DNA from: an uncultured Chloroflexia bacterium | GTDB taxonomy: Bacteria > Chloroflexota > Anaerolineae > JAAYZQ01 | Direction of reading: 5' to 3' | Assembly (NCBI GenBank): GCA_963700285.1 | Contig: CAVOXA010000001.1 | Location: 928,001 to 992,000, forward strand | DNA length: 64,000 bases | Made by a program: the position numbers and the translations under genes | Part shown: positions 26,834 through 56,715 of the stretch, one piece after another | How positions within the stretch are numbered: position 1 is the stretch's first letter | Layout: each line of letters begins with the position of its first letter | Notes under the pieces: model-generated | Told to the model about the DNA's origin: nothing | The model's database searches: none | The model's input: the letters and a program-made list of their open reading frames with translations, nothing else

Positions 26834-26906
26834 TCTACTTGACCACTGTGACGCAGAGAATTTTGGCGCATCAAAGAAAACTATCAATATATTGGAGGCG
26901 ACAGTC

Positions 26907-40538: not shown

Positions 40539-41756
40539 ATGTCACCAATCGACGCGCTGGCACCGGGCAATCTCGAGATCTCACGGCGGGCGCAGGCGGT
40601 ACCCTGGTCGGGTATCCGGCACATGTTCGAGCTGGCGGCCAAGGTACCGGATGCCATCAGTCTCTCAGTTGGCCAGCCTGACTTTGACACGCCGGAACAC
40701 ATCGTTGACGCGGGCCAGAAGGCTCTGGCTGAGGGCTACACCCGCTATGCCCCTGCCCTAGGCCTGGCAGAGCTGCGGGAAGCCATCGCCGGCAAGGTCT
40801 GGCGGGATAACGGCATCGACATCGACCCCAAGAAGGGGGCGATCGTCACTGCCGGGGCCGTAGAGGGCCTGCTCCTGATCCTCATGGCCGTCCTGGATCC
40901 AGGCGCTGAGGTGATCTTGCCCGATCCCGGCTACACCAATTTTGAGGGGATCGTCCGCGTCATCAATGGCATGCCAGTGCGCGTGCCCGTCTACGAGGAG
41001 AACGGTTTCCGGCTGGAAGCCGTGGAGGTGGAGAAGGCCATCAGCGAGCGGACGCGGGTGATGATCGTCAACTCACCGGCCAACCCAACCGGCGCCGTGC
41101 TGCATCGGGCTGACCTGGAATCGTTGGCCGAGCTGGCGCTGCGCCACAATCTGTTGCTCATCTCGGACGAGGCCTACGAAGCCTTTCTTTATGATGATCT
41201 GGAGCACACCAGCATTGGATCTTTCCCCGGTGTGAAGGAACATGTGGCGTCGGTCTATACTCTGTCCAAGACCTATGCGATGACCGGCTGGCGCATCGCC
41301 TACGTGGTGGGCCCGCAGTGGCTGATCAATCAGATGCACAAGATGCAGGAAGACGTGGTATCGTGTGTGACGACCTTTGTGCAGCACGCCGCTGTTGCCG
41401 CCCTGGAGGGTCCCCAAGATTGCGTGCACCGCATGGTGGCTGAGTTTGACCGGCGGCGCAAGTTCATGGTTGAGGCTATCAACGAGATCGAAGGCATCCG
41501 CTGCCTAGAGCCCCAGGGGGCCTTCTACCTCTTCCCGAACATCTCTGCACTGGGGCGTTCCTCTTCTGATGTTGCGGTGTCCCTGCTGGAGACGAGCAAG
41601 GTTGTATGTGTGCCTGGGACCGCCTTTGGACCCCGGGGTGAAGGTTACCTGCGCATCTCCTACGGTGCTTCCATGGACGACCTGGAAGAGGGTGTCCGGC
41701 GCATCAGGGACGGAGTGAGACAGATTCAGTCGCTGGGTGCCACCGGGGGATCCTGA
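40539..41756 (+). CDS. Class I PLP aminotransferase (aspartate/aromatic type)
   Basis: GQPDF, NSPANPTG, SDEAY, SKTYAMTGWR, GAFY, LRISY. Confidence 0.92.
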   Translation: MSPIDALAPGNLEISRRAQAVPWSGIRHMFELAAKVPDAISLSVGQPDFDTPEHIVDAGQKALAEGYTRYAPALGLAELREAIAGKVWRDNGIDIDPKKGAIVTAGAVEGLLLILMAVLDPGAEVILPDPGYTNFEGIVRVINGMPVRVPVYEENGFRLEAVEVEKAISERTRVMIVNSPANPTGAVLHRADLESLAELALRHNLLLISDEAYEAFLYDDLEHTSIGSFPGVKEHVASVYTLSKTYAMTGWRIAYVVGPQWLINQMHKMQEDVVSCVTTFVQHAAVAALEGPQDCVHRMVAEFDRRRKFMVEAINEIEGIRCLEPQGAFYLFPNISALGRSSSDVAVSLLETSKVVCVPGTAFGPRGEGYLRISYGASMDDLEEGVRRIRDGVRQIQSLGATGGS

Positions 41757-43039
41757 TGGATAGAAAGACTACGATGACCGCTAAAGGCCCTGGCGATAGT
41801 TCTACGCGGGCCGTGGCCTCCATTCCCTGGCGGGCCTGGCACGGCGACGGGTGGCTGGAGTTGACCTTTCCGCGGGGCTGGCGTGTCCAGACCTACTGGC
41901 CGACCGGCGGGCCTGACATTGGGCAAGAGGGGATCGACAAGGCTTTCGATAATCCTATATCGACACCCAAGGTTGAGAAGTTGGTGCGGGGCAAAGACCG
42001 GATCTCGATCGCTGTGGATGATCTCTCTCGCCCGACGCCTGCCGCCCGCATCTTACCTACGCTTCTGCGCCGTTTGGAGGCGGGAGGCGCAAAGCTGGAC
42101 CGGATACACGTTGTACTCGCCATCGGCACACACCGCCCCATGTTGCGTGATGACATTGTCAAAAAGCTTGGGGCTGCCACAGTTGATCAGATTGAGGTAA
42201 GGAGCAACCATCCCTATGACAATCTTGTGGTGCTAGGTACCTCAGCCCGTGGAACGCCAGTCCATATCTGTCGCTACTTTGCTGAGGCAGATGTCAAGAT
42301 CGGTGTAGGTTCAATCGTACCGCACGGGGTGCCGGGCTTTGCGGGCGGGGCCAAGGTCGTAGCGCCTGGTGTTTGTGGTGTGGATACGATCGCGGCCCTG
42401 CACCAACCCGGTCGTCACAGGCTCGGGCTGGCAAAAATCGAGGACAACGACTTTCGCGCAGACATCGAACAGTTTGTTGGAGACCAGGTGGGACTGGACT
42501 GCATTGTCAATGCGGTACCCAACGCGACTCGCGAGATTGCCGGTCTCGTCGTGGGAGACATGATCGCTGCGCATCGCGCCGGGGTGGAACTCTCAAAGCG
42601 CGTCTGTGCAACCACCATGCCGCCCGAGCCGGTGGACGTTGCCATCTGCAACGCCTATCCCAAGGATTCTGACTTTCATCAGATTACGCACGCGCTCCAC
42701 GCGCTGCGCTCGTCGTCAGAACCGGTGGTCAAACCAGGGGGAACGGTCGTGCTCGTGAGCGCCAGTCCCGAGGGCTATGGATATCACGGCCTCTATGGCC
42801 CTGGCATGCGCTACGACCTCTCTCGCAAACGCGACAACCGGGCAAAGACACGGACACTGGGAGATGCCAGCCTTCTCTTCTTCTCACCTGGTCTCAGCCA
42901 AGTGGAGGCCCGAAAGACCTCGGCGGTCCGTAGTTGGGATCAGATCGTGGGACAGCTTCTAGAGCGACACAGTGGTCAAGCCACCGTGGCCGTATTCCCC
43001 TGTGGACCCATCCAGCTCGCAGAGGAGCGCCCGAAATGA
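41756..43039 (+). CDS. LarA-family nickel-pincer racemase/epimerase
   Basis: DDLSRPTP, GTHRP, PHGVPGFAGGAK, ALH, AYP. Confidence 0.85.
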   Translation: MDRKTTMTAKGPGDSSTRAVASIPWRAWHGDGWLELTFPRGWRVQTYWPTGGPDIGQEGIDKAFDNPISTPKVEKLVRGKDRISIAVDDLSRPTPAARILPTLLRRLEAGGAKLDRIHVVLAIGTHRPMLRDDIVKKLGAATVDQIEVRSNHPYDNLVVLGTSARGTPVHICRYFAEADVKIGVGSIVPHGVPGFAGGAKVVAPGVCGVDTIAALHQPGRHRLGLAKIEDNDFRADIEQFVGDQVGLDCIVNAVPNATREIAGLVVGDMIAAHRAGVELSKRVCATTMPPEPVDVAICNAYPKDSDFHQITHALHALRSSSEPVVKPGGTVVLVSASPEGYGYHGLYGPGMRYDLSRKRDNRAKTRTLGDASLLFFSPGLSQVEARKTSAVRSWDQIVGQLLERHSGQATVAVFPCGPIQLAEERPK

Positions 43040-43833
43040 GTACCATTCGCATTGGAGTGGCCCAGGTGCCACAGACACCAGACTTGGCGCGCAATCGCGA
43101 CAAGACGCTGGAGTATATGGACAAGGCAGTCGCGCAAGGAGTGGAACTGCTCTGTTTCCCGGAAACCCATCTGCCAGGTTATCGAGTAGGCATGCTTGCC
43201 GCCGGAGCTCCCTGCGATGAGTTGGGCCTGGCACAGGCCACAGAACAGATCGCGGCCACATGCCGGGAGTTCTCTATGGGTATGATCCTGGGTACCGAAA
43301 CGCCCAACCCTGGTGGGAAACCCTTCAACAGCGCCCTCGTTCTCGATCAGGATGGACAGCCCATCGCCCTCCATCACAAGTCCAAGCTGACGCCAAAGGA
43401 CACTTTCGCCTACTCGGCCGGCACATGCCCTACTTCTTTTCTCTTCAAGGGCATCGCTATGGGGCTGGTCATCTGCTACGAGGGTTTTCGCTTCCCCAGC
43501 ACGACACGGACGTTGGCCAAAGCCGGCGCTCAGATCGTGTTCCATCCCCAGTTCAACCATGTCCTGCCCGGGATGGCTTGGAAGCTACCGGTCCACGAAG
43601 CCTTGCTCGTGGCCCGCGCCGCAGAGAACACGCTCTATTTTGTCTCGGCCAACATGAGTCACCCGCGCAACAATTGCCGGTCCCTCATAGTTGCGCCCGA
43701 CGGTTTGATTCAGGAAGCTTCTGTCCTGGGGCAGGAGATGTTACTTGTCGCCGATCTGGATCCCGCACGGGCTACCCATGCCTTTCTTCACGACGACCCG
43801 GAGCAGACTGCAAAAGCCCTGGCAGAGATCTAG
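43036..43833 (+). CDS. Carbon-nitrogen hydrolase (nitrilase superfamily)
   Basis: Catalytic triad in FPE, HHK and ICYEG; RAAEN; ATGA overlap with the upstream gene. Confidence 0.9.
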   Translation: MSTIRIGVAQVPQTPDLARNRDKTLEYMDKAVAQGVELLCFPETHLPGYRVGMLAAGAPCDELGLAQATEQIAATCREFSMGMILGTETPNPGGKPFNSALVLDQDGQPIALHHKSKLTPKDTFAYSAGTCPTSFLFKGIAMGLVICYEGFRFPSTTRTLAKAGAQIVFHPQFNHVLPGMAWKLPVHEALLVARAAENTLYFVSANMSHPRNNCRSLIVAPDGLIQEASVLGQEMLLVADLDPARATHAFLHDDPEQTAKALAEI

Positions 43834-43900
43834 CATGTTGATGGCACACGCAAACTACCGCTGGCTTTGAGCCAAACAAAATAGCCCTCAGGAGGGCAGA

Positions 43901-45391
43901 ATGCGTATCGGAATTGGCAAAATCTCGCAAGAAACGAACACTTTTTCACCCGCCCTGACAGATCTGGATATGCTGCATGCGTTTGGCGTGTATCATGGCC
44001 AAGACGTTCTCGATGTCTCACACTGGAGCGAGTACATCCAGGGCTTCCTCGACGTGGTGGGTGATCAGGAACTGGTGGGCATTACCCACGTTACGGCACT
44101 ACCCTCGGGGCCTCTGACCGAGGCAGGCCTCGATGCGATTCTGGAGTGGTTTGACGAGGATCTGGAGAAGGCCCTTCCCCTGGACGGGCTCCTGCTTAGC
44201 ATGCATGGCGCCTTTGCCGCCCTTACTGATACAGATGTCGAAGGTTTGATTCTGCGGAAGGCGCGTGAGACCTTGGGACCTGGGGTGGCCATCGGAGTTG
44301 CTCTGGACCTCCATGCCAACATTTCCAGGCGCAAGATCGAGAATGCGGACGTGATCTATGGGCTGCACACGCATCCGCACATAGACAGCCGGGAGGTAGC
44401 ACAGAAGGTGGCGCGCGTGCTCCTTGCTGCGTTGCGCGGCGAGGTCAAACCGGTCATCAGTGCTGTCAAGATCCCACTCATCACGCCTGCTGAGACCCAA
44501 TTGAGCTACGAATCTCCCTTAAAGGATCTAATGGAAGCCACGCTGCGCCAGGAAGATGATGAACGGGTGCTCGCCTCTTCGGTATTCGCTGTGCAGCCCT
44601 GGATGGACATCCCGGAGATGGGCTGGTGCAGCGTCGTGGTGACCGATGGCGACCGGCTGCTTGCCGATCAGCTCGTCAGAGACCTAGCTGCCATGACCTG
44701 GGATCAGAGGGAAACCTACACGCGACCCTGCCCGACCTACCTTGAAGCCCTGGACGAAGCCTTTTCTACCGATCTTCAACCTGTGGTCATTTCGGACTTT
44801 GCCGACCTGATGACCGGTGGTGGTACAGGGGATTCTGTATGGTATCTGAAGGAGTTGCTGGCCCGTAATCCGTCGGAGCCCTGCTATATTACGATGGTCG
44901 ACGCTGAGGCGGCGCAACGCATGGCAGAGGCCGGCGCAGGAGCCGATGTCACGCTCATGCTGGGCGGAAAACTGGACAACATCTATTCCAGTCCTGTCCA
45001 GGTGCGGGGCACCATCCTGCGAGTGTTGCCCGTAGCGCCCGACCGAGCGCTGCCCAGCAGCATGGGTCTGACCTGCGTATTGAGAATTGGGAACATCTAT
45101 GTCGTCACTTTTGAGCGCCTGGGCATGGGCTCCGACCCAAGCATCTATGCCGATGCCGGTCTCGATCCCATGAAAGCCAAGATCGTCATTGCCAAATCTG
45201 TTGTCGATTGGCGTGAGGGCTACAAGGATGTGGGCAAGCTCTTTCTCCTGGGAGAGGCGCCCGGACTGGCACCGTCCAACTTGCGCTCGCTGGAGTGGAA
45301 AAAGGTCCCCCGACCCATCTTCCCCCTGGACCAGGGGATGGCTTGGGACAGCGCCAAGGCCGTGGCCTACCGAAGCGACCGGCGAGCTTGA
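43901..45391 (+). CDS. M81 family metallopeptidase (MlrC-like), paralog 3
   Basis: QETNTFS, MHGA, DLHAN, HPHID, QPWMD, PRPIFPLD. Confidence 0.88.
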   Translation: MRIGIGKISQETNTFSPALTDLDMLHAFGVYHGQDVLDVSHWSEYIQGFLDVVGDQELVGITHVTALPSGPLTEAGLDAILEWFDEDLEKALPLDGLLLSMHGAFAALTDTDVEGLILRKARETLGPGVAIGVALDLHANISRRKIENADVIYGLHTHPHIDSREVAQKVARVLLAALRGEVKPVISAVKIPLITPAETQLSYESPLKDLMEATLRQEDDERVLASSVFAVQPWMDIPEMGWCSVVVTDGDRLLADQLVRDLAAMTWDQRETYTRPCPTYLEALDEAFSTDLQPVVISDFADLMTGGGTGDSVWYLKELLARNPSEPCYITMVDAEAAQRMAEAGAGADVTLMLGGKLDNIYSSPVQVRGTILRVLPVAPDRALPSSMGLTCVLRIGNIYVVTFERLGMGSDPSIYADAGLDPMKAKIVIAKSVVDWREGYKDVGKLFLLGEAPGLAPSNLRSLEWKKVPRPIFPLDQGMAWDSAKAVAYRSDRRA

Positions 45392-45422
45392 AAGGCAACG
45401 GTCTATCAAAGGAGACTCGAGC

Positions 45423-46583
45423 ATGAAACAACGTGCGAAACTGATGATTCCCGGTCCGGTGGAAGTGGATCCACGCGTTCTCGAAGTGATGGGACGCCCC
45501 CTCGTGCCTCACTACGAGGCCGAGTTCGCCCAGATTCACGCCGAGACCATGGCCGCGGCAAAGGCTGTGTTTCGGACAACGGGCGATCTGTTCGTTCTCA
45601 TGGGCAGTGGGACCGCAGGACTGGAAGCCTGCCTGAGGGGGATCGCCGGAAATGGCGGGAAAATACTTGTCCTTGTCAATGGTGGCTTTGCCAGGCTGCT
45701 GTCCCGAATTGCAAGGACTTATACCGATCGGGTGGAGGAGGCAGAATTCCCAGACCGGGAACCGATCCCGCCCGAGGCGCTGGACCAGATTTTGGCAAAG
45801 GATCCGTCTGTGCGTTCTGTGGCCGTCGTGCACAGCGAGACGCACACCGGCCTGCTGAACCCAATCCAGGCTTACGGCGAGGTGTGTCGAGCCCACGATG
45901 CTATTCTCATGGTGGACGCCATCTCATCCTTGGGTGGAGCGCGCCTGGATATGGATGACTGGAAGATCGATCTCTGTGTTACGGCATCGCAGAAAGCACT
46001 CGGCGCCCCTCCGGGCTTCTGCCTCATTGCTGTGAATCCCCGCTGCTGGCCACTGATCGATGAGCGGAAGGGCGGCCCAGGGTACTACCTTAATCTCAGC
46101 GCGTGGCGCCAGAGGGCAGCCGAGTCGGCCGACTGGCACCCAACGCTTTCTACCGTCGCGGTCAGCAACTTTCTGGCCCTACGCGAGGCGCTAGAAATGG
46201 TCGCCGAGGAAGGCATGGAGAACCGACTGGTGCGCCATCAACGGGTGTCACTTCTCGTCAGACAGGCGATACGCAGCCTCGGGCTTGAGACGTACGTCGC
46301 CGACGCGTACGCCTCGCCTACACTTACGACGGTGATGCTGCCTGATGGGCTCAGTGCTCAAGATGCTCGCGACTATATCAAGGCCAAACATGGGATCATG
46401 GTTGGCGGTGCGTTTTTCGGAAGTGAGATGCAGGCGTTCCGCATCGGTCATATGGGGCCGCAGGCAACCGTGGAAAATGCTGTTGGCGTCCTCGTCGCAC
46501 TTGAAGGCTACCTCAGGCAGGCAGGCTGGAATGTCGAGGCCGGGCAATGCTTGGCCGGGGTCCAGCCGGAGCTACTGAGCTAG
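45423..46583 (+). CDS. Class V PLP aminotransferase (alanine/serine-glyoxylate, PucG-like)
   Basis: LMIPGP, GSGT, HSET, VDAISS, SQKALG, RIGHMG. Confidence 0.9.
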   Translation: MKQRAKLMIPGPVEVDPRVLEVMGRPLVPHYEAEFAQIHAETMAAAKAVFRTTGDLFVLMGSGTAGLEACLRGIAGNGGKILVLVNGGFARLLSRIARTYTDRVEEAEFPDREPIPPEALDQILAKDPSVRSVAVVHSETHTGLLNPIQAYGEVCRAHDAILMVDAISSLGGARLDMDDWKIDLCVTASQKALGAPPGFCLIAVNPRCWPLIDERKGGPGYYLNLSAWRQRAAESADWHPTLSTVAVSNFLALREALEMVAEEGMENRLVRHQRVSLLVRQAIRSLGLETYVADAYASPTLTTVMLPDGLSAQDARDYIKAKHGIMVGGAFFGSEMQAFRIGHMGPQATVENAVGVLVALEGYLRQAGWNVEAGQCLAGVQPELLS

Positions 46584-46673
46584 GTTGTGAAAACTGGCGC
46601 CATGGTGGGCCCTGCGCATCATGCGCGCTGACCCGGCTGAGGCTCGGGAAATGAGGATTGGCGGGAAGGATTT

Positions 46674-47909
46674 GTGACCGTGTCTAGACTGCGAACCAGC
46701 ATGTGGCTCTATCCCTGGGATGTGCAAGATGAGGGCATCGACTTTGTGCTGGGGAGTATTCAGGACCGCGCTGGCATCGGTGGCGTCAACCTGGCGGTGA
46801 GCTATCATTCTGGCATGTTCCTTCTGCCCCACAATCCCCGGCGCAAGGTCTACTACCCCCAGCCAGGTGTCTACTTTCAGCCGGACGCTGCGCGCTTTGC
46901 GGGCCTGGCCATGCAACCCATCGTTAACGATCTTGCCAGTACAGACCTGGTGGCGCGCCTGCGATGCGAGACGGCGCAGCGGGGTATGGCCCTCACTGCC
47001 TGGACAGTCTGCCTGCACAATACCGCTCTGGGCATTGCCTACCCCGAGAGCACCATGAAAAATGTCTTCGGCGATCGGCTTATTAGCCAGCTCTGTCCGG
47101 CAAATCCACACGCGCGAGCTTATGCCCTGGCCTTGTTGGGGGATCTGCTCAACCGCGAGCTGGAATCGGTGCTGGTCGAATCCCTGGAGTACATGTCGTT
47201 CCAACATGGCTATCATCACGAAGTGATCGGGGTGCCACTTACGCCCTTTATCTCCTGGCTGCTCGGGCTTTGCTTCTGTGAGCACTGCCAGCGAGGGGCG
47301 GAGGAATCTGGAGTTGATGTCAAAGCGGTGCTGGCCTTTGTCCGCCGGGAGATCGAATGGTTTTTCGCCGGGGGCTTGGAAGCTGGCCGCGAAGGGATTA
47401 CTTGGCCGGAGATCAGGGCCCTCGCGGGTGAGGAGCTGGGGGCCTTCCACCAGTTTCGCATCAGCACGGTGACCAGCCTCTACGGGGAGGTCCACGCCGC
47501 TAGGGCGCCTGGCGCCCGCACCTTGCTGGAAGTCTGTGACTTTGGCCCACTCTGGGGCCTGGGACCGGATGGTGCGGCCTGGGAGAGTGGCTTTGACATG
47601 GCAGCCACGGCCCGCTTTTTCAGTGGTCTGCATCCTTGTCCCTACTTTGTCGCGGTGGATCAGGTGAGAGACAAGATGGACGAGTACCGGTGCCTGGTAC
47701 CCAGGGGCATGCCGGTCTATCCTGCCATCCGGGCCATCCCTCCCCAGGTGGCAACCGCTGCGGATCTACAAGCCAAGATGGATGCCTGCCAGCCGCGGTC
47801 AGTAGCTGGGTTCAGCTTCTACAACTATGGCTTTGTGCGCTATAATGCGCTGGATTGGATCAAGGCAGCCCTGGCTGCACTGGAGGGCTTGACCGAACTC
47901 AAGATGTAG
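46674..47909 (+). CDS. Hypothetical protein, probable glycoside-hydrolase-like TIM barrel
   Basis: Intact 411-aa ORF in the operon; YPWD, SYH, PHNP, LCP, HGYHHE, CFCEHC, FYNYG. Confidence 0.55.
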   Translation: MTVSRLRTSMWLYPWDVQDEGIDFVLGSIQDRAGIGGVNLAVSYHSGMFLLPHNPRRKVYYPQPGVYFQPDAARFAGLAMQPIVNDLASTDLVARLRCETAQRGMALTAWTVCLHNTALGIAYPESTMKNVFGDRLISQLCPANPHARAYALALLGDLLNRELESVLVESLEYMSFQHGYHHEVIGVPLTPFISWLLGLCFCEHCQRGAEESGVDVKAVLAFVRREIEWFFAGGLEAGREGITWPEIRALAGEELGAFHQFRISTVTSLYGEVHAARAPGARTLLEVCDFGPLWGLGPDGAAWESGFDMAATARFFSGLHPCPYFVAVDQVRDKMDEYRCLVPRGMPVYPAIRAIPPQVATAADLQAKMDACQPRSVAGFSFYNYGFVRYNALDWIKAALAALEGLTELKM

Positions 47910-47958
47910 CCGGATGGTTGGCAGAGCCAACCACTACGAACCAGAAGGAGTCAAGAGT

Positions 47959-49977
47959 GTGAGAATCGAAGAGTATGGTTTTGACAGACCCCGCAGTGGG
48001 CTGGCTGTCACAGCTGATGAGGCAGCCAGCCTGGCCAGCCAGATCGGGTTCCCTGTCGCCCTAAAGATCATTTCGCCCGACATCCTGCACAAGACAGATA
48101 TGGGCGGGGTCGAGCTGGCGCTGGATTCTGAAGAGGCGGTGCGCGCTGCCTTTGGGCGCATCACAGCCCGTGCCAGCGAAGAGGCGCCAGAGGCTCAGAT
48201 CGAGGGTGTCGGCGTTGAGGAGATGATCCAGGAGGGTGTGGAGATCATTGTCGGGCTCATCAACGACCCCCAGTTCGGACCCACTATCATGTTCGGCCTG
48301 GGCGGGATCTTGACCGAGATCCTGGACGACGTCAGTTTTCGCGTCTTGCCCATCACGCCGGACGACGCGCGCAGTATGGTCAACGAGATCCAGGGCAAGC
48401 CCCTGCTTGACGGCTACCGGGGACAGGCGCCCGTGTCGGAGGACCTGCTGGTCGATTTGCTGATGAAGGCCAGCCGGATGGGGATGGATCTGGCTGGCAG
48501 GTTGGACTCTGTGGACCTGAACCCAATCGTCGTCTGGGGCGACCAGCACCGGGTTCTGGACGCCAAGGTACTGCTGGACGCTGGGGAGCGCTCCTACGAG
48601 GCCGCCAAGGCGAACACGGCCAATCTCGCGGCCTTTTTTCAGGCCAAGGCAGTCGCACTGGTCGGTGCCTCGTCCACGCCGGGCAAGATCGGCAACTCGG
48701 TACTGGACAGCCTGAGCCAACATGCGTACGAGGGCAATGTCTATCCTGTCAATCCGGTCCGAGACGAGATCATGGGCCTGCAGACCTATCCCAATCTGGC
48801 AGCGACGCCGGAGGATACCGAGTTGGTGGTGGCCGTCGTGGATCTTTTCCAGGTCCCGGTCCTGATCGAAGAGACCGCGGCCAAGGGCGTGCACAGCCTG
48901 GTGGTCGTCTCTGGCGGCGGAAAGGAACTGGGCGGTGAGCGGCAGGAGCTGGAAGCGCGTATCAAGGAACTCGCCACTCAGCTCGGCGTGCGGATCATCG
49001 GCCCAAATTGCATCGGTGTCTTTGACGGCGCGTCCCGGCTGGATACCTTCTTCCAGGTGCATGAGCGCATGGTCCGCCCCCCCAGCGGCAAGGTGGCCAT
49101 GACTACCCAGTCGGGAACGGTGGGCGCCGCCTTCCTGGAAGCGGCGACCTATGGCATGAGCAAGTTCGTCAGCTATGGCAACCGTGTCGATGTGGACGAG
49201 GCGGACCTGCTGGCCTACTTGGCCGACGACCCCAATACGGCCGTGATCGCCTGCTACGTCGAGGGCCTGGAACGGGGGCGCAAGTTCCTGGAGACGGCGC
49301 GCCAGGTAACGAAAAAGAAACCGGTGGTAATCTATAAGGCGGGGCGCAGCCAGCGGGGCGCTAGGGCTTCCATGTCTCACACCGGCTTTTTCGGCGGCAG
49401 CTACAAGGTCTGCCAGGGGGCCTTCCGGCAGGCAGGATTGATCGATGTAGATAGCCTGGAAGAGCTACAGGCCGCGGCCCAGGCCCTGGCCCTGCAGCCT
49501 GAGGCGCGGGGCCCGAGGCTGGCCATGATCTCCAACGGCGCGGGGACCATGGTCCAGGCTATGGACCTCATGAACGCGTACGGCCTGACAATGCACGATC
49601 TCGAGCCAGAGACGGTTGAGCGCCTGGAGGCGGTCTACCCCGGCTACTATATCGTGCAAAACCCGGTGGACGTCACCGGCTCGGCGACCAGCCAGGACTA
49701 CCGGCTGGGCATCGAAGCCCTCATCGAGGATCCCAACGTCGACGTCATCATGCCCTGGTTCGTCTTTCAGGACACGCCGCTGGATGAGGGGATCGTGGAA
49801 GCACTGGTGGAGCTGTCGGGCGCGAAACCAATCCTATGCGGAGCGATGGGAGGTCCCTATACGGTGAAAATGGGCCGGGAACTGGAGGCCCAGGGAGTGC
49901 CACTGGTGTATGGAGTGCGACCCTGGCTGGCTGCGGCCCGGGCAGTATCGTATCGAGCAAGCACACTAAACTTATAG
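47959..49977 (+). CDS. ADP-forming acyl-CoA ligase, single chain with ATP-grasp (beta) domain first and CoA-binding (alpha) domain second
   Basis: N-terminal GFPVALKI, HKTDMGGV, DLNP; C-terminal VGAS, GPNCIG, QSG, SHTG (phospho-His), NPVD. GTG at 47959 follows AAGGAG. Confidence 0.9.
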   Translation: MRIEEYGFDRPRSGLAVTADEAASLASQIGFPVALKIISPDILHKTDMGGVELALDSEEAVRAAFGRITARASEEAPEAQIEGVGVEEMIQEGVEIIVGLINDPQFGPTIMFGLGGILTEILDDVSFRVLPITPDDARSMVNEIQGKPLLDGYRGQAPVSEDLLVDLLMKASRMGMDLAGRLDSVDLNPIVVWGDQHRVLDAKVLLDAGERSYEAAKANTANLAAFFQAKAVALVGASSTPGKIGNSVLDSLSQHAYEGNVYPVNPVRDEIMGLQTYPNLAATPEDTELVVAVVDLFQVPVLIEETAAKGVHSLVVVSGGGKELGGERQELEARIKELATQLGVRIIGPNCIGVFDGASRLDTFFQVHERMVRPPSGKVAMTTQSGTVGAAFLEAATYGMSKFVSYGNRVDVDEADLLAYLADDPNTAVIACYVEGLERGRKFLETARQVTKKKPVVIYKAGRSQRGARASMSHTGFFGGSYKVCQGAFRQAGLIDVDSLEELQAAAQALALQPEARGPRLAMISNGAGTMVQAMDLMNAYGLTMHDLEPETVERLEAVYPGYYIVQNPVDVTGSATSQDYRLGIEALIEDPNVDVIMPWFVFQDTPLDEGIVEALVELSGAKPILCGAMGGPYTVKMGRELEAQGVPLVYGVRPWLAAARAVSYRASTLNL

Positions 49978-49990
49978 AGAGGAGACTATC

Positions 49991-51208
49991 ATGACCCAAC
50001 CATGGAAGACCGACAAGTGGTACGTAAGCCCCTGGAACTTTTTTGATGAGGTGACCGCAGGGTTCGATTTCGCGCCACAGATCAAGATCCACGACATGAC
50101 CCTGCGCGATGGCGAGCAGCAGGCCGGCCTGGAGCTGCGCAAGGACGACAAGGTCCGCATCGCCGAGGCTCTGGCCGAGGCAGGCGTCCACCGCATCGAG
50201 GCTGGCATGCCAGCCGTCTCGAAACAGGATGAGGACGCCATCCGTGAGATCGTCAAGCGCGACCTGGGGCCCGAGATCTTTGCCTTCTGCCGCTGCGTGG
50301 TGGACGATGTGAAGCTAGCAGCGGACTGTGGCGTCAGTGGCATCGTCATCGAGATCCCGGCTTCCGAACACATCATTCAGAACGCCTACCAGTGGCCCGT
50401 GGAGAAAGCTATCGATCTATCGATCAAGGCCACCAGCGTGGCCAAAGAGCTGGGATTGTACACGGCCTTCTTTACCATCGACGCCACACGCGCCGACATC
50501 AATTGGCTCCTGGACCTTCTGGAAAGGGTAGCCACCGAGGGCCACATGGATTCGCTGGTGCTGGTGGACACCATGGGTGGAGCCCATCCAGGTGCCATCC
50601 GCTACTTTGCCGGCAAAGTCAAGGAGCGCTTCTCGCAACCCCTTGAAGCACACTTTCACAACGACTTTGGACTGGCCGTGGCCAACACGCTGGAGGCACT
50701 GGCGGCCGGCGTTGAGGTAGCCCACGTCACGGTGGGTGGCATGAGCGAGCGCGCAGGAGCCGCGGCCTTGGAAGAGGTTGTTGTCGCGCTGCTGGCCATG
50801 TACGGCATCGACGTAGGGATGAAGTATGACAAGTTGTATGACCTGACCCAACTGGCGACGTCGCTGACGGGACACGTCCTGGCACCCAACAAGGCCATCG
50901 TGGGCGAGGACCTCTTTACCATCGAGTCTGGCATCCCCGCAGCCTGGACGCGGCGCTGTCAAGGTGATCTGATCACTGAGGTCTTTCCCCTACACTGGGA
51001 CCTGATGGGCCACCCGGGCCCGAACATTGTCCTGGGCAAAGGCTCCGGTGCGCCATCCGTGGAAATCTGGCTGGAAGAGATGGGCCAGGAGGCCAGCCCA
51101 GCGCAAGTAGAGGCCTTGACGGTCATGGTCAAGGAGAAATCACTGGAGAAAAAGGGCCTGGTCACCAAGGATGAATTCAGGGCCATGACCGATGAGGTCC
51201 TTACCTGA
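49991..51208 (+). CDS. DRE-TIM metallolyase (LeuA / homocitrate synthase-like, no regulatory domain)
   Basis: DMTLRDGEQ, IEAG, DTMG, HFHNDFG, ERAG, NKAIVG. Confidence 0.85.
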   Translation: MTQPWKTDKWYVSPWNFFDEVTAGFDFAPQIKIHDMTLRDGEQQAGLELRKDDKVRIAEALAEAGVHRIEAGMPAVSKQDEDAIREIVKRDLGPEIFAFCRCVVDDVKLAADCGVSGIVIEIPASEHIIQNAYQWPVEKAIDLSIKATSVAKELGLYTAFFTIDATRADINWLLDLLERVATEGHMDSLVLVDTMGGAHPGAIRYFAGKVKERFSQPLEAHFHNDFGLAVANTLEALAAGVEVAHVTVGGMSERAGAAALEEVVVALLAMYGIDVGMKYDKLYDLTQLATSLTGHVLAPNKAIVGEDLFTIESGIPAAWTRRCQGDLITEVFPLHWDLMGHPGPNIVLGKGSGAPSVEIWLEEMGQEASPAQVEALTVMVKEKSLEKKGLVTKDEFRAMTDEVLT

Positions 51209-51370
51209 TCCCGGTCTTGCCGCAACGTGAGCAGATCACTCCTTGTGAAAGTGGCAAGTCTGCGCCTTGCTTGAACCTTCGCAAGGATGATTCTATTGGA
51301 GTGATATCGCTTGCCTTGGGAATCAACCTGTGGTATACAGGGGGCAACCCAGTCGGAAATGGAAGACGAC

Positions 51371-52584
51371 ATGACGACAGACACGCGCGGACCTGATGTA
51401 GGTCTGCAGAGGATATCGGAAGACCAGTACCTGCCCTGCACCCGCTGTGGTTTGTGCTCCCATGCCTGCCCAAGCTACCGCGCCTACCGCACCCAGACCT
51501 ACTCGGCACGTGGCCGAGTGGCTCTGCTTCGCGCTGTTAGTCAGGGAGACATGGAAGTCGGCGAGACCTATGGAGACAGGTTCTACACCTGTACCCTGTG
51601 CGCCGCCTGTGACCAGGTCTGTCCCAGCGGGGTGAAGGTGGAAGAGCTTTTGCTCGCCGGCCGGGAAGAGATCGCCCTCCGTGACCAGCTACCGCCGAAC
51701 CTGACGAACCTCAGCCAGGCCATCCACGAGAGCCACAATATCCTGGGCGAGGACAATGTCGCGCGCCAGCTCTGGGCGGAGAACATGGAGCGTCCGCCTT
51801 CGGGCAGTGCCAAAGAGATCGCCGAGGTAGCCTTTTTCGTGGGTTGTGTGAGTTCGCTCTTTCCGCGTAGCTATGCGGTCCCACAAACATTCGTCCAGAT
51901 CCTCGATACTGCCCAGGTGGACTATACCTTGCTGGGGGGGAAGAGTGGTGTTGCGGCTACCCGCTGATGGTCAATGGCCTGCTACCGGAAGCAGGGGATA
52001 TGATCCGCCACAACATCGCCGCGGTACATGCCAGGGGCGTCCGGATGGTCGTGTTTACCTGCCCGTCTTGCTACCACGTTTGGAAGCATGTCTACCCCGA
52101 CATCGCTGGGGCAGAAATGGGCGACCTGGAACTGCTGCACGCCACCGAGTACCTGGCCCGGCTCCTTGACGATCCACCTGCCTCGGGAGCCACTGCCGGG
52201 GATGGACAGAGGCTGCCTCTGCATGAGCTGGACCTGAGGGTGGCCTATCACGACCCCTGCGATCTGGGGCGCAAGAGCGGCGTTTACGAGGCGCCCCGCC
52301 GCGTCCTGCGCAGCATTCCGGGCGTGACGCTGGTAGAAATGGTCGACAACCGGGAGAATGCGCTGTGCTGCGGAGGTGGGGGAAACGTCGAGACCTATGA
52401 CCCTGACTTGGTTGCCGCAATCTCCAGCCGGCGTCTGGCCCAAGCCCAGCAGGCCGGCGCCCAGGCCATTGTGTCAGCCTGCCAGCAGTGCGAGCGGACC
52501 CTGGCCGCTGCGGCCCGCCGGGATCGCGTGCGGCTGCGGGTCATGGATATCGCCGAGATCGTCTGGAAGGCAGTGGAGAAATGA
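51371..52584 (+). CDS. Fe-S / CCG-domain oxidoreductase subunit (GlcF/HdrD-like; frameshift in the G-run at ~51935-51945)
   Basis: CTRCGLC...CP, CTLCAAC...CP, FVGC, CPSC, YHDPC, CCGGGG, ACQQC. Confidence 0.85.
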
Positions 52585-53966
52585 TTGAGGACAAAACGAT
52601 CGAAAGACTCTGCAATCTGGTGGGCGCGGAAAACGTACATTCCGCCGGTGAGGATCTGCATTGCCATGCTTTCGATGGCACGATTGCGCACCATGAGCCT
52701 GACCTTGTCGTGACACCCAGAAGCACAGAGGATGCCAGCCAGGTGCTCCGTGTCGCCTCCGAACAAGGCATCCCTGTCGTGCCGCAGGGGATGGCCAGCG
52801 GTCTGGCTGGCGGTTGCGTGCCCACTTCAGGGGGCATCGCCCTCAGCCTGACGCGCATGGACCGTATCCTGGAGATCGACCGTGCGAACATGACGGCCAC
52901 GGCCGAGGCGGGCCTGATCACGGCCGTGTTGCAAGAAGAGGTGGAGGCGCTGGGGCTCTTTTACCCGCCTGATCCTGGTAGTCTCAAACACTCTACGCTG
53001 GGCGGCAACGTGGCCTGCAACGCTGGCGGACCCCGCTGTCTGAAATACGGGGTGACCGGTGACTATGTCATGGGCCTGACCGTCGTACTGGCCGATGGTC
53101 GCGTATTGCGGACGGGGGGCAAGGCCATCAAAAACGTCACCGGCTACAACTTGACTCAGCTCTTCGTGGGCTCCGAGGGTACTCTGGGGGTTATTACCGA
53201 GGTTCTGATTGGGCTAATCCCCAAGCCAACCTACGTGCAGACTCTCCTTGGTATCTTTCCCCGGCTGGACGACGCCAGCCGCGCGGTCAACAGCGTGTTG
53301 GCCGCTGGCGTGGTCCCGGCCACCCTGGAGCTTATGGACGAGACGGCCATCGCTTGCATTGAGGAGTTCATGCACCTGGGCTTGCCTCTGGACAAGGAAG
53401 CGATCCTGATCTTGGAGGCAGATGGGAATGACGAGGCGGCCGTATTGCGCGAGATCAAGACAATCGCCGACCTGTGCCGCGAGAGCGGCGCCTCTGAGGT
53501 CCAGATGGCACAAAGCGAGGCGGAGCGGCAGGACCTGTGGCAAGCCCGGCGCAGCCTGCTTCCCTCCTTGGCGCGCCGCGCACCGAATCAGCTACTGGAG
53601 GACGTGACCGTACCGAGGAGCGAGATTCCAGCTATGGTACGGCGCGTCAAGGAGATCAGCCGCCGGTACGATCTGCCCCTCGTCGTGTTTGGTCACGCCG
53701 GCGATGGCAACCTGCATCCCACCATCCTGTTTGATAATCGGGACGAAACACGGTGGCCCCTGGTCGAACGCGCGGCCCATGACACCTTCCTTGCCGCGCT
53801 AGAGCTTGGCGGTACGCTCTCCGGCGAACACGGGATCGGGATGCTCAAACGGGACTATATGGAGCGCGCCCTGGGGTCGGTGTCCATCGAGGTACATCGC
53901 AACCTCAAGCACGCCCTGGATCCCCAGGGCATCCTGAATCCGGGGAAGGTATTCCCGCCCAACTAG
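52581..53966 (+). CDS. FAD-linked 2-hydroxyacid dehydrogenase subunit (GlcD-like)
   Basis: YPPDPGS, GGNVACNAGG, KYGVT, GSEGTLG, GHAGDGNLH, GEHGIG, LNPGK; ATGA overlap with the Fe-S subunit gene. Confidence 0.9.
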   Translation: MIEDKTIERLCNLVGAENVHSAGEDLHCHAFDGTIAHHEPDLVVTPRSTEDASQVLRVASEQGIPVVPQGMASGLAGGCVPTSGGIALSLTRMDRILEIDRANMTATAEAGLITAVLQEEVEALGLFYPPDPGSLKHSTLGGNVACNAGGPRCLKYGVTGDYVMGLTVVLADGRVLRTGGKAIKNVTGYNLTQLFVGSEGTLGVITEVLIGLIPKPTYVQTLLGIFPRLDDASRAVNSVLAAGVVPATLELMDETAIACIEEFMHLGLPLDKEAILILEADGNDEAAVLREIKTIADLCRESGASEVQMAQSEAERQDLWQARRSLLPSLARRAPNQLLEDVTVPRSEIPAMVRRVKEISRRYDLPLVVFGHAGDGNLHPTILFDNRDETRWPLVERAAHDTFLAALELGGTLSGEHGIGMLKRDYMERALGSVSIEVHRNLKHALDPQGILNPGKVFPPN

Positions 53967-54052
53967 TCGGAGGTGGGGCGTTGCTCTCTGCGCTGGGGAA
54001 TAATCCAGGAGGGGCAAGATACCAGACAGTGGCTTGAACGTAGCCCTGACGG

Positions 54053-54907
54053 CTAAAGGTCCGGTCCGACCATCTCCAGCTGGAAGCATTCCGGCTGTGT
54101 CGTTGAATGCAGGTACCCGGCTGCAATCTCGGGATGGTGCTCGAAAACGAGCAGTACCTGGTTCTCGACGGCCCAACGCGCCAGACGCCGCTTGGTCTCA
54201 ATGCTAACCAGGGGTTGTACGTCGTAGGCAGCGACGCAGGCCAGCCACTCGATGTGGATGGGCCACGTAGCCACATCCCCCAAAAAGATCGCTGTCTGTC
54301 CGCGGCTTTCCACGACGACGCACTGGTGGCCTGGAGTGTGTCCTGGAGTGAGGATGACACAAACCTCGCTGGTTAACCGCGTGTCGCCCTGCAATATGCG
54401 CAACTGCCCCGATCGCTCCAGCGGTTCAAAGTTTGCTGCATGGTAGACGGCCCTGGTTCGCTCGTTGGGATACATTGCCTCAGAGATCTCCAGGCGCTGG
54501 ACGCAGTAGGTGGCGTGGGGAAAGACGGGCACAAGATTGCCGCTCTCGTCATAGTGTGTGTTGCCTCCACAGTGATCGCCGTGCAAGTGGGTGTTGATCA
54601 CCATGTCTATGTCCTGTGGCCGAATACCCAGTGCACCCAAACTGCACAGAAGACGCCGCTCACCTTCTAGATCGACAAAGGAACGTTCTTTGTCTGACAT
54701 CTTGTCACCGGAGCCGGTGTCTACCAGTATGCGTTGTCCGTCCGTCTCGATGAGCAAGCAGCGCTGCTCCAGGGGAACGCGGTTCGATTCATCTGGCTGT
54801 CTGATCAGCTGCCACTCTTCCTTGGGCATAGTCCCAAACAGGCCACCTCCGTCCGACCAATACAAACCATCAGAAACGAGGCGCAGATCCACGTTACCGA
54901 GACGCAT
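54053..54907 (-). CDS. MBL-fold hydrolase, YtnP-like
   Basis: DGGGLFG, VDTG, THLHGDHCGG, TPGHTPGH, AYD, FEH. Confidence 0.85.
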   Translation of the reverse strand: MRLGNVDLRLVSDGLYWSDGGGLFGTMPKEEWQLIRQPDESNRVPLEQRCLLIETDGQRILVDTGSGDKMSDKERSFVDLEGERRLLCSLGALGIRPQDIDMVINTHLHGDHCGGNTHYDESGNLVPVFPHATYCVQRLEISEAMYPNERTRAVYHAANFEPLERSGQLRILQGDTRLTSEVCVILTPGHTPGHQCVVVESRGQTAIFLGDVATWPIHIEWLACVAAYDVQPLVSIETKRRLARWAVENQVLLVFEHHPEIAAGYLHSTTQPECFQLEMVGPDL

Positions 54908-55081
54908 CGTTTATTCCCTCGGGTGAATTGAGCTGTCGATCACAGCCTGGTACCCGCATTCTAGCATCAAAGAGCGCAAAGACCAAACAAAGGACCGAAG
55001 CGTACGAAGGGAGAGTAGCAATCTTGATGGTGCCGGATGTCTTATGCCAACCGCGTCCCGTAGGCGGTCGTTCCTCGTTGC

Positions 55082-56715
55082 TCATCCGCCCGGCGTATGG
55101 GAGGGGGGCGGACCCGTCGCCCCGGCGCGGGCGGCCTCGCGGTCGAGATACCCGGGTGGGACAGTGCCCTCTATCATCGCCCAGGGGAGCGCCTCGTCAT
55201 CGGCTCGCTGGCCAAGTAGTTCTCCAGGGGACAGATCCGCCTCGGCCAGCGCCTCTCGCCAGGCTGCCGGTGTCAGGCGCTCGGTGGCCAGGATCGCCTT
55301 GGCCACGCGCCGGTCTCCCCGGGCCAGCGTGCCCTGAATCTCGGCCCAGGCCGGGCTCTCTGACTTGACAGCAATGTTGCGCTTGCGCAGAACTCTCTCG
55401 ACGTAACCTATTCTTCGCCTGACTGTCTTGGCTGGTGTCTGGGCCAAGCGTTGGAAGGGCGTGTGGGCCTTGGGCACAAAAGGCGTGAGGTTCACTGTTA
55501 CCAGCCGTGGAAAGCGACCCGCGCAGGCCAGCGCCAGGTCAACCAGAGCTTCCAGGTCGCTCTCATCTTCGGTGGGCAACCCTACCATGAAGTAGAGCTT
55601 GACCTGTTCAAAGCCGTACAGTGCAGCGAGTTCTGTGGCGCGCAGCACGTCGTCCTCGCTCTGGTCCTTGTTGACGACTGCCCGCAGTCGCTGCGAACCA
55701 GCCTCAGGGGCGATGGTCAGCGTCCGAGCGCCTGACTCCGCCAAAGCCCGGATCAGCGGTTCTGACACAGGATCCACGCGCATGGAGGAGACGCTGATCC
55801 GTGCGCCCAGCGCCCGCAGTTCTACAGCCAACTGGTCGATCTGTCGATGGTCGGAGACAGCTGCGCTGACCAGGCCGATGCGTTCGGTGTGGTTCAGCAG
55901 CTTGCGCGCCTGGTCCAGGATGCTCTCCACGGACCGCTGCCGGGCAGGGCGATAGGTATAGCCTGCCAGGCAGAAGCGGCAGCCGCGGCCGCAGCCCCGG
56001 GCAATCTCGATGAGGCCCATGTCCGCGAATTCGGTGTCGGGGGTGAGGATGACCGAATGGGTCGGGAAGGCGTCCAGATCTGGGAGGTACTGGCGGGCGA
56101 CAGGTTTTCGGGTTGCAGTTTCGGGCTCGGCGTTCGGCAGGTAGAGGCCAGGGATCTGCGAGAGGGCTTCCAGCGCCCTATCACGATCGTCGGTGACCAG
56201 GTGCAGGGCATCGGTGAGGGGGCCAAAGATAGGTTCCACTTCGCCGACAACGACGGCATCCAGCAGGGGAGCCAGAGGTTCAGGGTTGGCGGACAAGGCC
56301 GGCCCCCCTGCAATGATCAGGGGGTGGCTTTCGTCACGGTTGGCAGCCAGGGGTGGGATGCCTGCAGCCCGGAGCAAGAGCACCAGGTTAAAGTAGTCCA
56401 TCTCGTAGCTGAGGGAGAAGGCGATGACGGGAAAGTAGTCAAGCGGCGAGCCACTCTCCAGGGCAGACGGAGATACGGAGTTCTGTCCGGTCTGCGTTGC
56501 GATGCGCAGGCGGCACAAAGACGCGCTCGCACACGACGTCTTGCCGGGCATTCCACAGCCCGTATAGCGAGTGCAGGGCCAGGCTGGACATGCCCAGGTA
56601 GTAGGTGTTGGGGAAGGCGAGAGCGATGGGCAGCCTCCCGCCCCAGTCCTTCCGGACCGTGCCGCGTTCCTTATCCAGGACGCGATTTAGCTCAGCCGCT
56701 CTGTTGCCAGCTCAT
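55082..56715 (-). CDS. Radical SAM protein of the TIGR03960-related group (frameshifts near the 5' end)
   Basis: RGCGRGCRFC, TIAPE, KLYFMVGLP, FVPKAHTPFQ. An upstream frame gives RKDWGGRLPIALAFPNTYYLGMSSL. Confidence 0.85.

Follow-up and report, generated by a model that had tools for sequence, protein, structure and literature searches.

A fused ADP-forming acyl-CoA synthetase (ACD) is encoded on a 64,000-nucleotide stretch of DNA from an uncultured Chloroflexia bacterium (assembly GCA_963700285.1, contig CAVOXA010000001.1, positions 928,001 to 992,000), hereafter called the window. The gene lies on the + strand at 47959..49977, and its product, P0001, was recognized by Pfam, NCBIfam and PDB matches. 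According to the explanation that we favour, with a probability of roughly 0.55, this ligase would activate a small C2-C3 acid from a catabolic gene array, in concert with an adjacent DRE-TIM enzyme (P0123) and a 2-hydroxyacid dehydrogenase. An initial annotation of the DNA had proposed a bacterial, catabolic relative of Nmar_1309, the thaumarchaeal 3-hydroxypropionate--CoA ligase, with the order of its two halves reversed relative to most fused enzymes.

Domain order and start site of the ligase

P0001 contains all five subdomains, in the order 3-4-1-2-5, and its four Pfam matches all reached at least their gathering scores. The ATP-grasp domain (subdomains 3-4, residues 18-220, 47965..48573; ATP-grasp_5 PF13549, 222.7 bits) is followed on the same strand by a CoA-binding Rossmann domain (subdomain 1, residues 245-369, 48646..49020; CoA_binding_2 PF13380, 77.3 bits), which carries a GPNCIG motif, and by a flavodoxin domain like that of succinyl-CoA ligase (subdomain 2, residues 392-525, 49087..49488; Succ_CoA_lig PF13607, 165.5 bits). 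The last part is a Ligase-CoA subdomain 5 (residues ~539-679, 49528..49950), which matched Ligase_CoA_2 PF19045 with 23.7 bits over residues 539-613 and in which the alignment to the NCBIfam model NF045492 extends to residue 679; it contains the clade-specific motifs SNGAG (540), NPVDV (583), FVFQD (616) and GGPYT (646). By this domain content, P0001 is an ADP-forming acyl-CoA synthetase. His59 (codon 48088-48090, + strand) lies within the ATP-grasp domain, and His489 (codon 49378-49380, + strand), which is predicted to be the phosphohistidine and lies in the motif SHTG of the swinging loop, was invariant in 75/75 aligned rows.

The Pfam order confirmed that the ATP-grasp (beta) part precedes the CoA-binding (alpha) part, and the five stretches that the initial annotation had picked out were all present in the translation (VSGGGKELGGER at residue 332, RLDTFFQVHERMVR at 375, SNGAG at 540, MPWFVFQDTPL at ~613 and GGPYTVKM at 646). 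The domain order was counted from the matches of the 150 best representatives at 50% identity, a match in two stretches being taken as alpha-first. In this sample the beta-first order was indeed the minority, with 27 beta-first, 119 alpha-first and 4 partial proteins. It was not confined to the Nmar_1309-like clade, as the Archaeoglobus-type model NF045494 also aligned in one stretch.

The open reading frame (ORF) of P0001 extends from an ATG at 47914 to 49977 on the + strand and comprises 687 aa. No AAGGAG-like site was found at this ATG, which is located 5 nt past the upstream stop codon. An in-frame GTG at 47959 has an AAGGAG sequence 8 nt upstream and yields a product of 672 aa. Because of this spacing and because the homologs are 667-674 aa long, the GTG appears to be the likelier start.

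Relationship to the 3-hydroxypropionate--CoA ligase Nmar_1309

The best NCBIfam model of P0001 was NF045492, 3-hydroxypropionate--CoA ligase, with 861.4 bits in one stretch covering residues 14-679 and profile positions 25-694 of 700. The best solved relative was PDB 9y43 (Nmar_1309), with 696 bits and an E value of 4e-208, likewise in one stretch (residues 12-678), so that the resemblance pointed out by the initial annotation proved to be real. Identity to a Nitrosopumilaceae ortholog was 49% over 686 aligned columns. P0001 and Nmar_1309 have in common the 3-4-1-2-5 order, with a linker joining the ATP-grasp and CoA-binding parts, an end-to-end alignment, the relay histidines and the motifs SNGAG and FVFQD, which separate their clade from more distant beta-first ACDs. 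They differ in setting, Nmar_1309 belonging to a carbon-fixation organism and P0001 to a catabolic array.

The equivalog cut-off of NF045492, 1300 bits, was missed by P0001. When the model was calibrated with four archaeal and six bacterial sequences from the retrieved loci, the archaeal ones scored 1329.5, 1246.4, 1354.9 and 1364.1 bits, three of the four reaching at least 1300, and the six bacterial ones 800-926 bits. P0001 thus fell on the bacterial side of a gap of about 320-560 bits that separated archaeal from all bacterial sequences tested, and by these scores it is not an equivalog of 3-hydroxypropionate--CoA ligase. The next NCBIfam models also stayed below their cut-offs. The runners-up were the Archaeoglobus acetate-CoA ligase NF045494 (502.5 bits versus 1200) and an alpha-first 4-hydroxybutyrate-CoA ligase (443.4 bits), and the acetate--CoA ligase (ADP-forming) model TIGR02717 gave 394.8 bits versus 567.15.

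Other ACDs matched with lower scores. The fused Archaeoglobus enzyme represented by NF045494 is beta-first like P0001, at 502 bits against a cut-off of 1200. An alpha-first solved ACD (350 bits to the PDB chain) belongs to the same superfamily and has the same catalytic parts, but has the opposite order, aligned in two stretches and is much more distant. The heterotetrameric ACD of Candidatus Korarchaeum cryptofilum (PDB 4xyl), the Pyrococcus-type ACDs and the Archaeoglobus enzyme share the chemistry and the two-histidine relay of the P0001 family; the alpha and beta subunits of the Korarchaeum enzyme matched residues 238-660 and 18-221 of P0001 with 274 and 188 bits. In contrast to the fused P0001, the Korarchaeum and Pyrococcus ACDs consist of separate subunits. 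DddX, an ATP-dependent dimethylsulfoniopropionate lyase (PDB 7cm9), is a member of the ACD family from bacterial catabolism; it is alpha-first and matched with 231 bits, and its lyase activity is not implied for P0001. The family is reportedly capable, as the DddX study would have it, of more than acetate chemistry.

The ligase itself is ordinary and not rare, with thousands of bacterial homologs. Among 7995 scored candidates 6401 were homologs, the best 120 of them at 62-85% identity. Many already carry the label 3-hydroxypropionyl-CoA synthetase in JGI; their NCBI name is 'acetate--CoA ligase family protein'. When 401 genomes were sampled evenly from the phylum to which the window belongs, with two candidates scored per genome, a ligase match at E <= 1e-150 was obtained in 4.

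Active-site and clade-specific residues

A preprint on the structure of Nmar_1309 (bioRxiv 10.1101/2025.09.22.677778) names H69 and H503 as the relay histidines and places N376, S411, G412, T413, E462, N555, A557, G558, D602 and D636 around 3-hydroxypropionate, phosphate and waters. These residues were mapped onto P0001 by hand from a pairwise alignment with 9y43, the equivalents being H59, H489, N365, S400, G401, T402, E450, N541, A543, G544, D586 and D620, of which N365 forms part of the GPNCIG motif region of the CoA-binding domain. H59, H489, E450 and D586, aligning with H69, H503, E462 and D602, were invariant in the alignments, and the mapped catalytic and ligand residues as a whole were invariant or nearly so. 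V434, which is also named for Nmar_1309 in that preprint, was left without a match, the chain carrying G at 434.

N541, A543 and D620 were the same in every row of the Nmar_1309-like clade but variable in more distant beta-first ACDs, indicating from the alignments that the distinctive motifs of the initial annotation are clade markers. At 23 positions one residue was fixed in the archaeal rows (at least 90%) and another in the rows of the Chloroflexota-dominated clade (at least 85%), and several of these positions adjoin active-site motifs. Position 379 is F in the Chloroflexota-dominated clade, and also in the Desulfobacterota-like and Thermotogota groups, versus A in ammonia-oxidising archaea; position 492, directly after the phosphohistidine motif, is F versus S, position 621 T versus D, position 582 Q versus G and position 369 V versus M. 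We infer that these five may represent changes of specificity that arose on the archaeal branch.

Phylogenetic position

Peptide patterns of P0001 retrieved 80 related loci, 33 labelled bacterial and 47 archaeal (Nitrososphaerota or Thermoproteota), and this retrieval set the sampling of the trees. Four trees were calculated: a quick LG+G4 tree of 75 rows, a quick posterior mean site frequency (PMSF) tree of 51 rows, an IQ-TREE LG+F+G4 tree (1000 ultrafast bootstraps (UFBoot), 51 rows, 697 columns) and a careful PMSF tree under LG+C20+F+G4. All four placed P0001 in a bacterial, Chloroflexota-dominated clade that is sister to a group composed of Desulfobacterota-like sequences and ammonia-oxidising archaea. 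The archaeal sequences were monophyletic (UFBoot/SH-aLRT 100/100 in the careful PMSF tree, UFBoot 100 in IQ-TREE) and were joined by four MAG (metagenome-assembled genome) proteins labelled 'Deltaproteobacteria' or Thermodesulfobacteriota (100/95 and 100). Corresponding values were 99/98 and 97 for the window's clade and 100/100 and 95 for the whole clade of 41 rows. The rows of the window's clade came from Chloroflexota, Gemmatimonadota, Aminicenantota and Thermotogota, with two unlabelled representatives and one genome of the same class.

Membership in the clade of Nmar_1309, as it had been claimed, therefore stood for the wider Nmar_1309-like clade, on the evidence of NF045492, 9y43 and the 100/100 support of the 41 rows, but not for the archaeal clade itself, inside which P0001 did not fall, in keeping with 861 versus 1300 bits. 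That this is a bacterial member is likely, the nearest contigs being labelled Chloroflexota or Anaerolineae.

In all four trees the Desulfobacterota-like group was closer to the archaeal enzymes than P0001 is. Constraining the archaea with the window's clade to the exclusion of that group gave a likelihood 9.57 log units worse (approximately unbiased test, p-AU 0.0455); this rejection was borderline, and the group had been chosen after the tree was seen. The next outgroups, P0130 and P0131, were Candidatus Bathyarchaeia MAG proteins. As two transfers are required whether the gene moved from bacteria to archaea or in reverse, and with Bathyarchaeia outside, the trees do not decide the direction of transfer. 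In one published reconstruction the gene is given as 'possibly acquired from Euryarchaeota' (bioRxiv 10.1101/2020.06.28.176255), and structure papers on the archaeal enzyme speak of bacterial intermediates and a possible transfer involving Chloroflexota.

Pairing with an HMGL-like gene

The gene for P0123, an HMGL-like (DRE-TIM) protein of 405 aa, starts 14 nt past the stop codon of the ligase gene (49991..51208, + strand). With blastp at E <= 1e-10 over at least half of the query, plus Pfam, as the criterion for an HMGL-like neighbour, such a gene was the direct neighbour of the ligase gene in 12 of 33 bacterial and in none of 47 archaeal loci. The paired loci were labelled Chloroflexota, Gemmatimonadota, Aminicenantota and Thermotogota; the HMGL-like gene was downstream of the ligase in ten and upstream in two Thermotogota loci. 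A further adjacent pair was observed in genome G076.

Seven of the 12 paired loci also contained a 2-hydroxyacid dehydrogenase, which was GlcD-type in six and a D-2-hydroxyacid dehydrogenase (2-Hacid_dh) in one. The six GlcD-type loci included four with FeS/CCG proteins and three with an electron transfer flavoprotein. CoxG, a cyclase and a CoxMSL-type molybdenum dehydrogenase occurred in three paired loci, and a GntR/FCD regulator was found directly upstream in four.

Pairwise distances of the ligases and of the HMGL-like proteins were correlated across the 10 shared loci (Spearman 0.93, reached by 0 of 5000 permutations), and the nearest neighbours were the same for both proteins, also across phylum labels. 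As far as distances can indicate it, this is compatible with the two genes having been inherited or transferred together. At least 19 of the HMGL homologs listed had a longest contig equal in length to that of a listed ligase homolog, which may hint at shared contigs. No paper on the pairing was found in the literature searches. Among longer proteins, a weak search for fusions of the P0123 family with the ligase returned only one LeuA-like protein of 831 aa. No fused domain was evident in the extended open frames over P0123-like genes in loci L096 and L091, which were judged, without a domain scan, to be upstream read-through.

The contexts of unpaired bacterial ligase loci were inconsistent and included rubrerythrins, ArgJ and others. 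Downstream of one unlinked ligase (L030:10188-11668, - strand) a bAvd-like protein was seen beside a reverse transcriptase, a pair typical of diversity-generating retroelements.

P0123-like genes were detected in 12 of the 401 phylum genomes at E <= 1e-60. In the ten loci taken from this sample that had no ACD, the recurrent partners were D-2-hydroxyacid dehydrogenases, Amidohydro_2, M24 and M20 peptidases, GntR/FCD and TctABC, and one of the ten contained a molybdenum dehydrogenase set. In locus L087, a PPDK_N and PEP-utilizers protein (L087:6123-7856, + strand) was located directly upstream of the P0123-like gene (L087:7933-9177), in the usual position of the ligase; it has an ATP-grasp and a phosphohistidine swivel domain without the usual phosphoenolpyruvate/pyruvate barrel.

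Residues of the DRE-TIM partner P0123

The best solved relatives of P0123 were a homocitrate synthase (6ktq, 147 bits) and an isopropylmalate synthase (3rmj, 141 bits), and its best NCBIfam model was LEU1_arch, with 299 bits against a cut-off of 485. Database names for the family, including those in ESM Atlas, were generic only. Residues were mapped in BjMAMS numbering via an alignment to 6e1j. The study of BjMAMS, a methylthioalkylmalate synthase (JBC 2024, PMC11532901), in which mutation of H388 or E227 abolished or strongly lowered activity, gives R89, D90, T257, H288 and H290 as ligands of the metal and the 2-oxoacid, H388 as the general base, with H388A, D, E and Q inactive, and E227A and D as inactive too.

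P0123 keeps the ligands as R39 and D40 (motif LRDGxQ), T194 (motif DT) and H221 and H223 (motif HxH), which were present in 123/123 family rows. H388 is replaced by P316 and E227 by I163. Across the 123 rows, position 316 was P in 68, V in 39, I in 13, A in 2 and L in 1, and position 163 was I in 119 and V in 4; position 311, I311 in P0123, was I in 80, V in 29, L in 12 and Y in 2. Neither the catalytic Glu (motif xED) nor the catalytic His (motif SGIH) of Claisen enzymes, both required for enolising acetyl-CoA, was thus kept in any of the 123 members, and in P0123 they give way to I163, I311 and P316. P0123 therefore shares the HMGL-like TIM barrel and the ligands with the Claisen-condensing DRE-TIM synthases (isopropylmalate, homocitrate, citramalate and methylthioalkylmalate synthases), but since its general-base His and Glu are substituted throughout the family, it is, to judge from these residues, not a canonical acetyl-CoA-enolising synthase. 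Family invariants that differ from the canonical LeuA of the same genome are H34, R68, E121, H127, Y133, W135, H185, H245, E312 and K350.

Two assignments of P0123 were considered and set aside. A Re-citrate synthase was rejected, the genome having a normal citrate synthase and P0123 being devoid of the Claisen catalytic residues. A malate synthase stand-in within a glc-like operon was demoted on account of the same residues; a malate synthase (PF01274) match was not obtained in the 89%-complete genome.

Gene neighbourhood

From ~23 to 54 kb the window forms a single + strand array, in agreement with the catabolic setting that had been proposed: the ligase lies within a predicted catabolic gene array. 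The array contains Opp-type permeases, three paralogous M81 (MlrC-like) peptidases (25280-26833, 26892-28448 and 43901-45391), a HemL-like class-III aminotransferase (NCBIfam), a DgaE-family pyridoxal phosphate (PLP)-dependent ammonia-lyase (29918-31039), a GFO/IDH/MocA dehydrogenase, an ArgE/DapE-like M20 enzyme, a short-chain dehydrogenase/reductase (SDR) and an amidohydrolase/deacetylase (PRK09237, 36535-37731; 415 bits versus the NCBIfam cut-off of 371). Further genes of the same strand encode a metallo-beta-lactamase-type hydrolase, an old yellow enzyme (OYE)/FadH-type flavoenzyme, a class-I aminotransferase, a CN-hydrolase, a LarA-like protein (41756-43039), the best model of which was the nickel-dependent malate racemase LarAH6 (242 bits versus a cut-off of 500), and a class-V aminotransferase (45189-46583; Pfam and NCBIfam). 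LarA-like ORFs were seen in loci L026 and L035 as well. In L006, L016 and L034, too, an M81 gene was a neighbour of the ACD/HMGL pair, and L034 had the class-V aminotransferase at 62% identity.

The DgaE-type and amidohydrolase genes give hints of a breakdown of D-amino-acid or amino-sugar-acid type compounds. Relatives of these genes were observed in L006 (a SelA-like PLP enzyme with RidA) and in L033 (the same amidohydrolase family, 428 bits).

The gene directly upstream of that for the ligase encodes P0122 (46674..47909, + strand), a protein of 411 aa from no named family, with no Pfam or NCBIfam match. It was absent beside the ACD of the other ligase loci; its ESM Atlas neighbours were large unnamed clusters with distant GHL10-like leads.

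Downstream of P0123, a GlcF-like iron-sulfur protein is divided between two + strand ORFs in different frames (51311..52584; Fer4 half 51311-51967, CCG half 51967-52584), while each of its orthologs is one protein of 381-397 aa. Breaks across frames or by stops were also seen in an AcsA-like gene, in a COX1 gene and in the genome's second ACD (G000 C5:272764-274594, C1:476805-478057, C9:285671-287774). As several genes of one assembly are interrupted in this way, assembly indels are a likely cause. The next gene encodes a GlcD-type FAD-linked 2-hydroxyacid dehydrogenase (52488..53966, + strand; Pfam, and TIGR00387 with 491.8 bits versus a cut-off of 567.9), the true start of which is probably after 52584.

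In a scan of 43000-55500 the numbers of promoter-like sites (1) and terminator-like sites (6) did not exceed the expectation from shuffled sequence, and no operon boundary could be drawn from it. A look-up of RNA runs returned none. No 3-hydroxypropionate/4-hydroxybutyrate cycle genes were seen in the neighbourhood scans, a genome-wide search for them not having been made. On the opposite strand, at 57518-58648, an ORF of 376 aa matches only the last ~110 positions of a ribonucleotide reductase barrel domain (NrdJ-like) and represents a fragment or a split gene.

Proposed function and alternatives

By analogy with the published mechanism of its homolog, ATP would phosphorylate H59 of P0001 and the phosphate would then pass to H489, which the swinging loop would carry to where subdomains 1, 2 and 5 of the dimer make up the site; there, an acyl-phosphate would arise and be attacked by CoA. 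Gene order suggests that the ligase works with the adjacent DRE-TIM protein and with the GlcD/GlcF-type 2-hydroxyacid dehydrogenase. The DRE-TIM protein would bind a metal-chelated 2-oxoacid without canonical enolisation of acetyl-CoA, and the acyl unit of the ligase would be the second fragment, produced or consumed alongside this 2-oxoacid, with acetate, propionate, 3-hydroxypropionate, lactate and glycolate as candidates. The predicted reaction, from acid, CoA and ATP to acyl-CoA, ADP and Pi, is reversible, and we lean only slightly towards acid activation in the host organism. The genome encodes two acetate kinases, an AcsA-like protein, a second ACD and a haem-copper oxidase. Judged by this gene content it is not dependent on P0001 for acetate formation, and a role of the ligase beyond plain acetate formation is therefore plausible.

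Several observations weigh against this proposal. An adjacent HMGL-like gene was absent from 21 of the 33 bacterial ligase loci, some of which had short flanks, and only one of the 11 P0123-like loci taken from the 401-genome phylum sample contained an ACD, indicating that the pairing is optional on both sides. Some correlation of distances would arise with any pair of genes from the same genomes. No group-specific residue was found when 12 HMGL-linked and 11 unlinked ACDs were compared at 80% within-group conservation, and a linked and an unlinked ligase (L021 and L030) were 82% identical; the missing difference would suggest acetate or another common metabolite and not a pathway-specific acid. 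The ligase is thus probably an optional partner that is not tailored to the HMGL-like pathway. Literature searches returned no biochemical data or substrate assay for bacterial members of the beta-first clade, and the sequence gives no indication of the direction in which the reaction runs.

These unpaired loci with their inconsistent contexts, and the lack of a residue that separates linked from unlinked enzymes, would also be accommodated if P0001 were a general synthetase for acetyl-CoA or other short acyl-CoAs that forms ATP by substrate-level phosphorylation, the HMGL-like neighbour being mechanistically meaningless. ACDs of fermenters commonly serve ATP-forming acetyl-CoA turnover, and the NCBI name of the homologs agrees with such a role. 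We nevertheless consider this unlikely, as the adjacency recurs under four phylum labels, in both gene orders and with matching protein relationships, as two acetate kinases and a second ACD are already present, and as the acetate-type models scored below both the 3-hydroxypropionate model and their own cut-offs (502 versus 1200 and 395 versus 567).

A bolder version of the favoured explanation, which we put forward as a tentative and rather doubtful idea, is that ligase and DRE-TIM protein constitute a self-contained CoA-cycling module. P0123 would descend from Claisen synthases, would have lost the enolisation of acetyl-CoA and would hold a metal-bound 2-oxoacid as a pyruvate-type enolate; it would make or break a C-C bond to a short acyl unit, CoA being the acceptor, and the ligase would couple the acyl-CoA to ATP.

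The curated model and the solved structure that matched best both belong to a 3-hydroxypropionate--CoA ligase, and the residues that contact 3-hydroxypropionate are conserved. P0001 might accordingly be taken for a true 3-hydroxypropionyl-CoA synthetase, serving the assimilation of 3-hydroxypropionate (formed, for instance, via malonate semialdehyde from beta-alanine, pyrimidines or acrylate) and leading on to acryloyl-CoA and propionyl-CoA; the class-III aminotransferases, SDRs, amidohydrolase and CN-hydrolase of the array, its OYE/FadH-type enoate or enoyl-CoA reductase, and an enoyl-CoA hydratase in L033, would suit such a route. But 861 bits is far under the 1300 that three of four archaeal controls passed, the positions fixed in archaea differ in the bacterial clade (A/F379, S/F492, D/T621, G/Q582, M/V369), the class-III aminotransferases are HemL-like by NCBIfam and not of the beta-alanine type, and the malonate-semialdehyde step was not identified, all of which makes this assignment distinctly improbable.

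Least probable, and by a good way doubtful, is a ligase that would produce the CoA ester of a hydroxy-dicarboxylate such as malate or citramalate for cleavage by the HMGL-like protein to acetyl-CoA and glyoxylate or pyruvate, on the analogy of malate thiokinase and malyl-CoA lyase: an NDP-forming ligase beside a metal-dependent fold of the C-C lyase type, accessory genes for 2-oxo and 2-hydroxy acids (GlcD, 2-Hacid_dh, class-V aminotransferase, LarA-like), the GntR/FCD regulators upstream in four paired loci and the lack of a malate synthase match in the 89%-complete genome would favour it, but the acyl-pocket residues are those of an enzyme that acts on a small monocarboxylate, most occurrences of the HMGL-like family are not accompanied by a CoA ligase, and known malyl- and citramalyl-CoA lyases mostly have other folds.

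Implications

For the archaeal enzyme, the trees narrow down the question of origin: the Desulfobacterota-like sequences are the nearest of those sampled, followed by the large Chloroflexota-dominated clade, with Bathyarchaeia outside. For the bacterial enzyme, the altered DRE-TIM partner P0123 may be of more interest than the ligase. If the CoA-cycling module exists, operation towards cleavage would represent a new route of substrate-level phosphorylation that replaces hydrolytic C-C cleavage in the breakdown of peptides, amino acids or sugar acids, and the DRE-TIM partner would represent a new reaction class in its superfamily. The recurrent pairing of the ligase with an altered DRE-TIM enzyme and with 2-hydroxyacid dehydrogenases marks a catabolic step that has not been studied.

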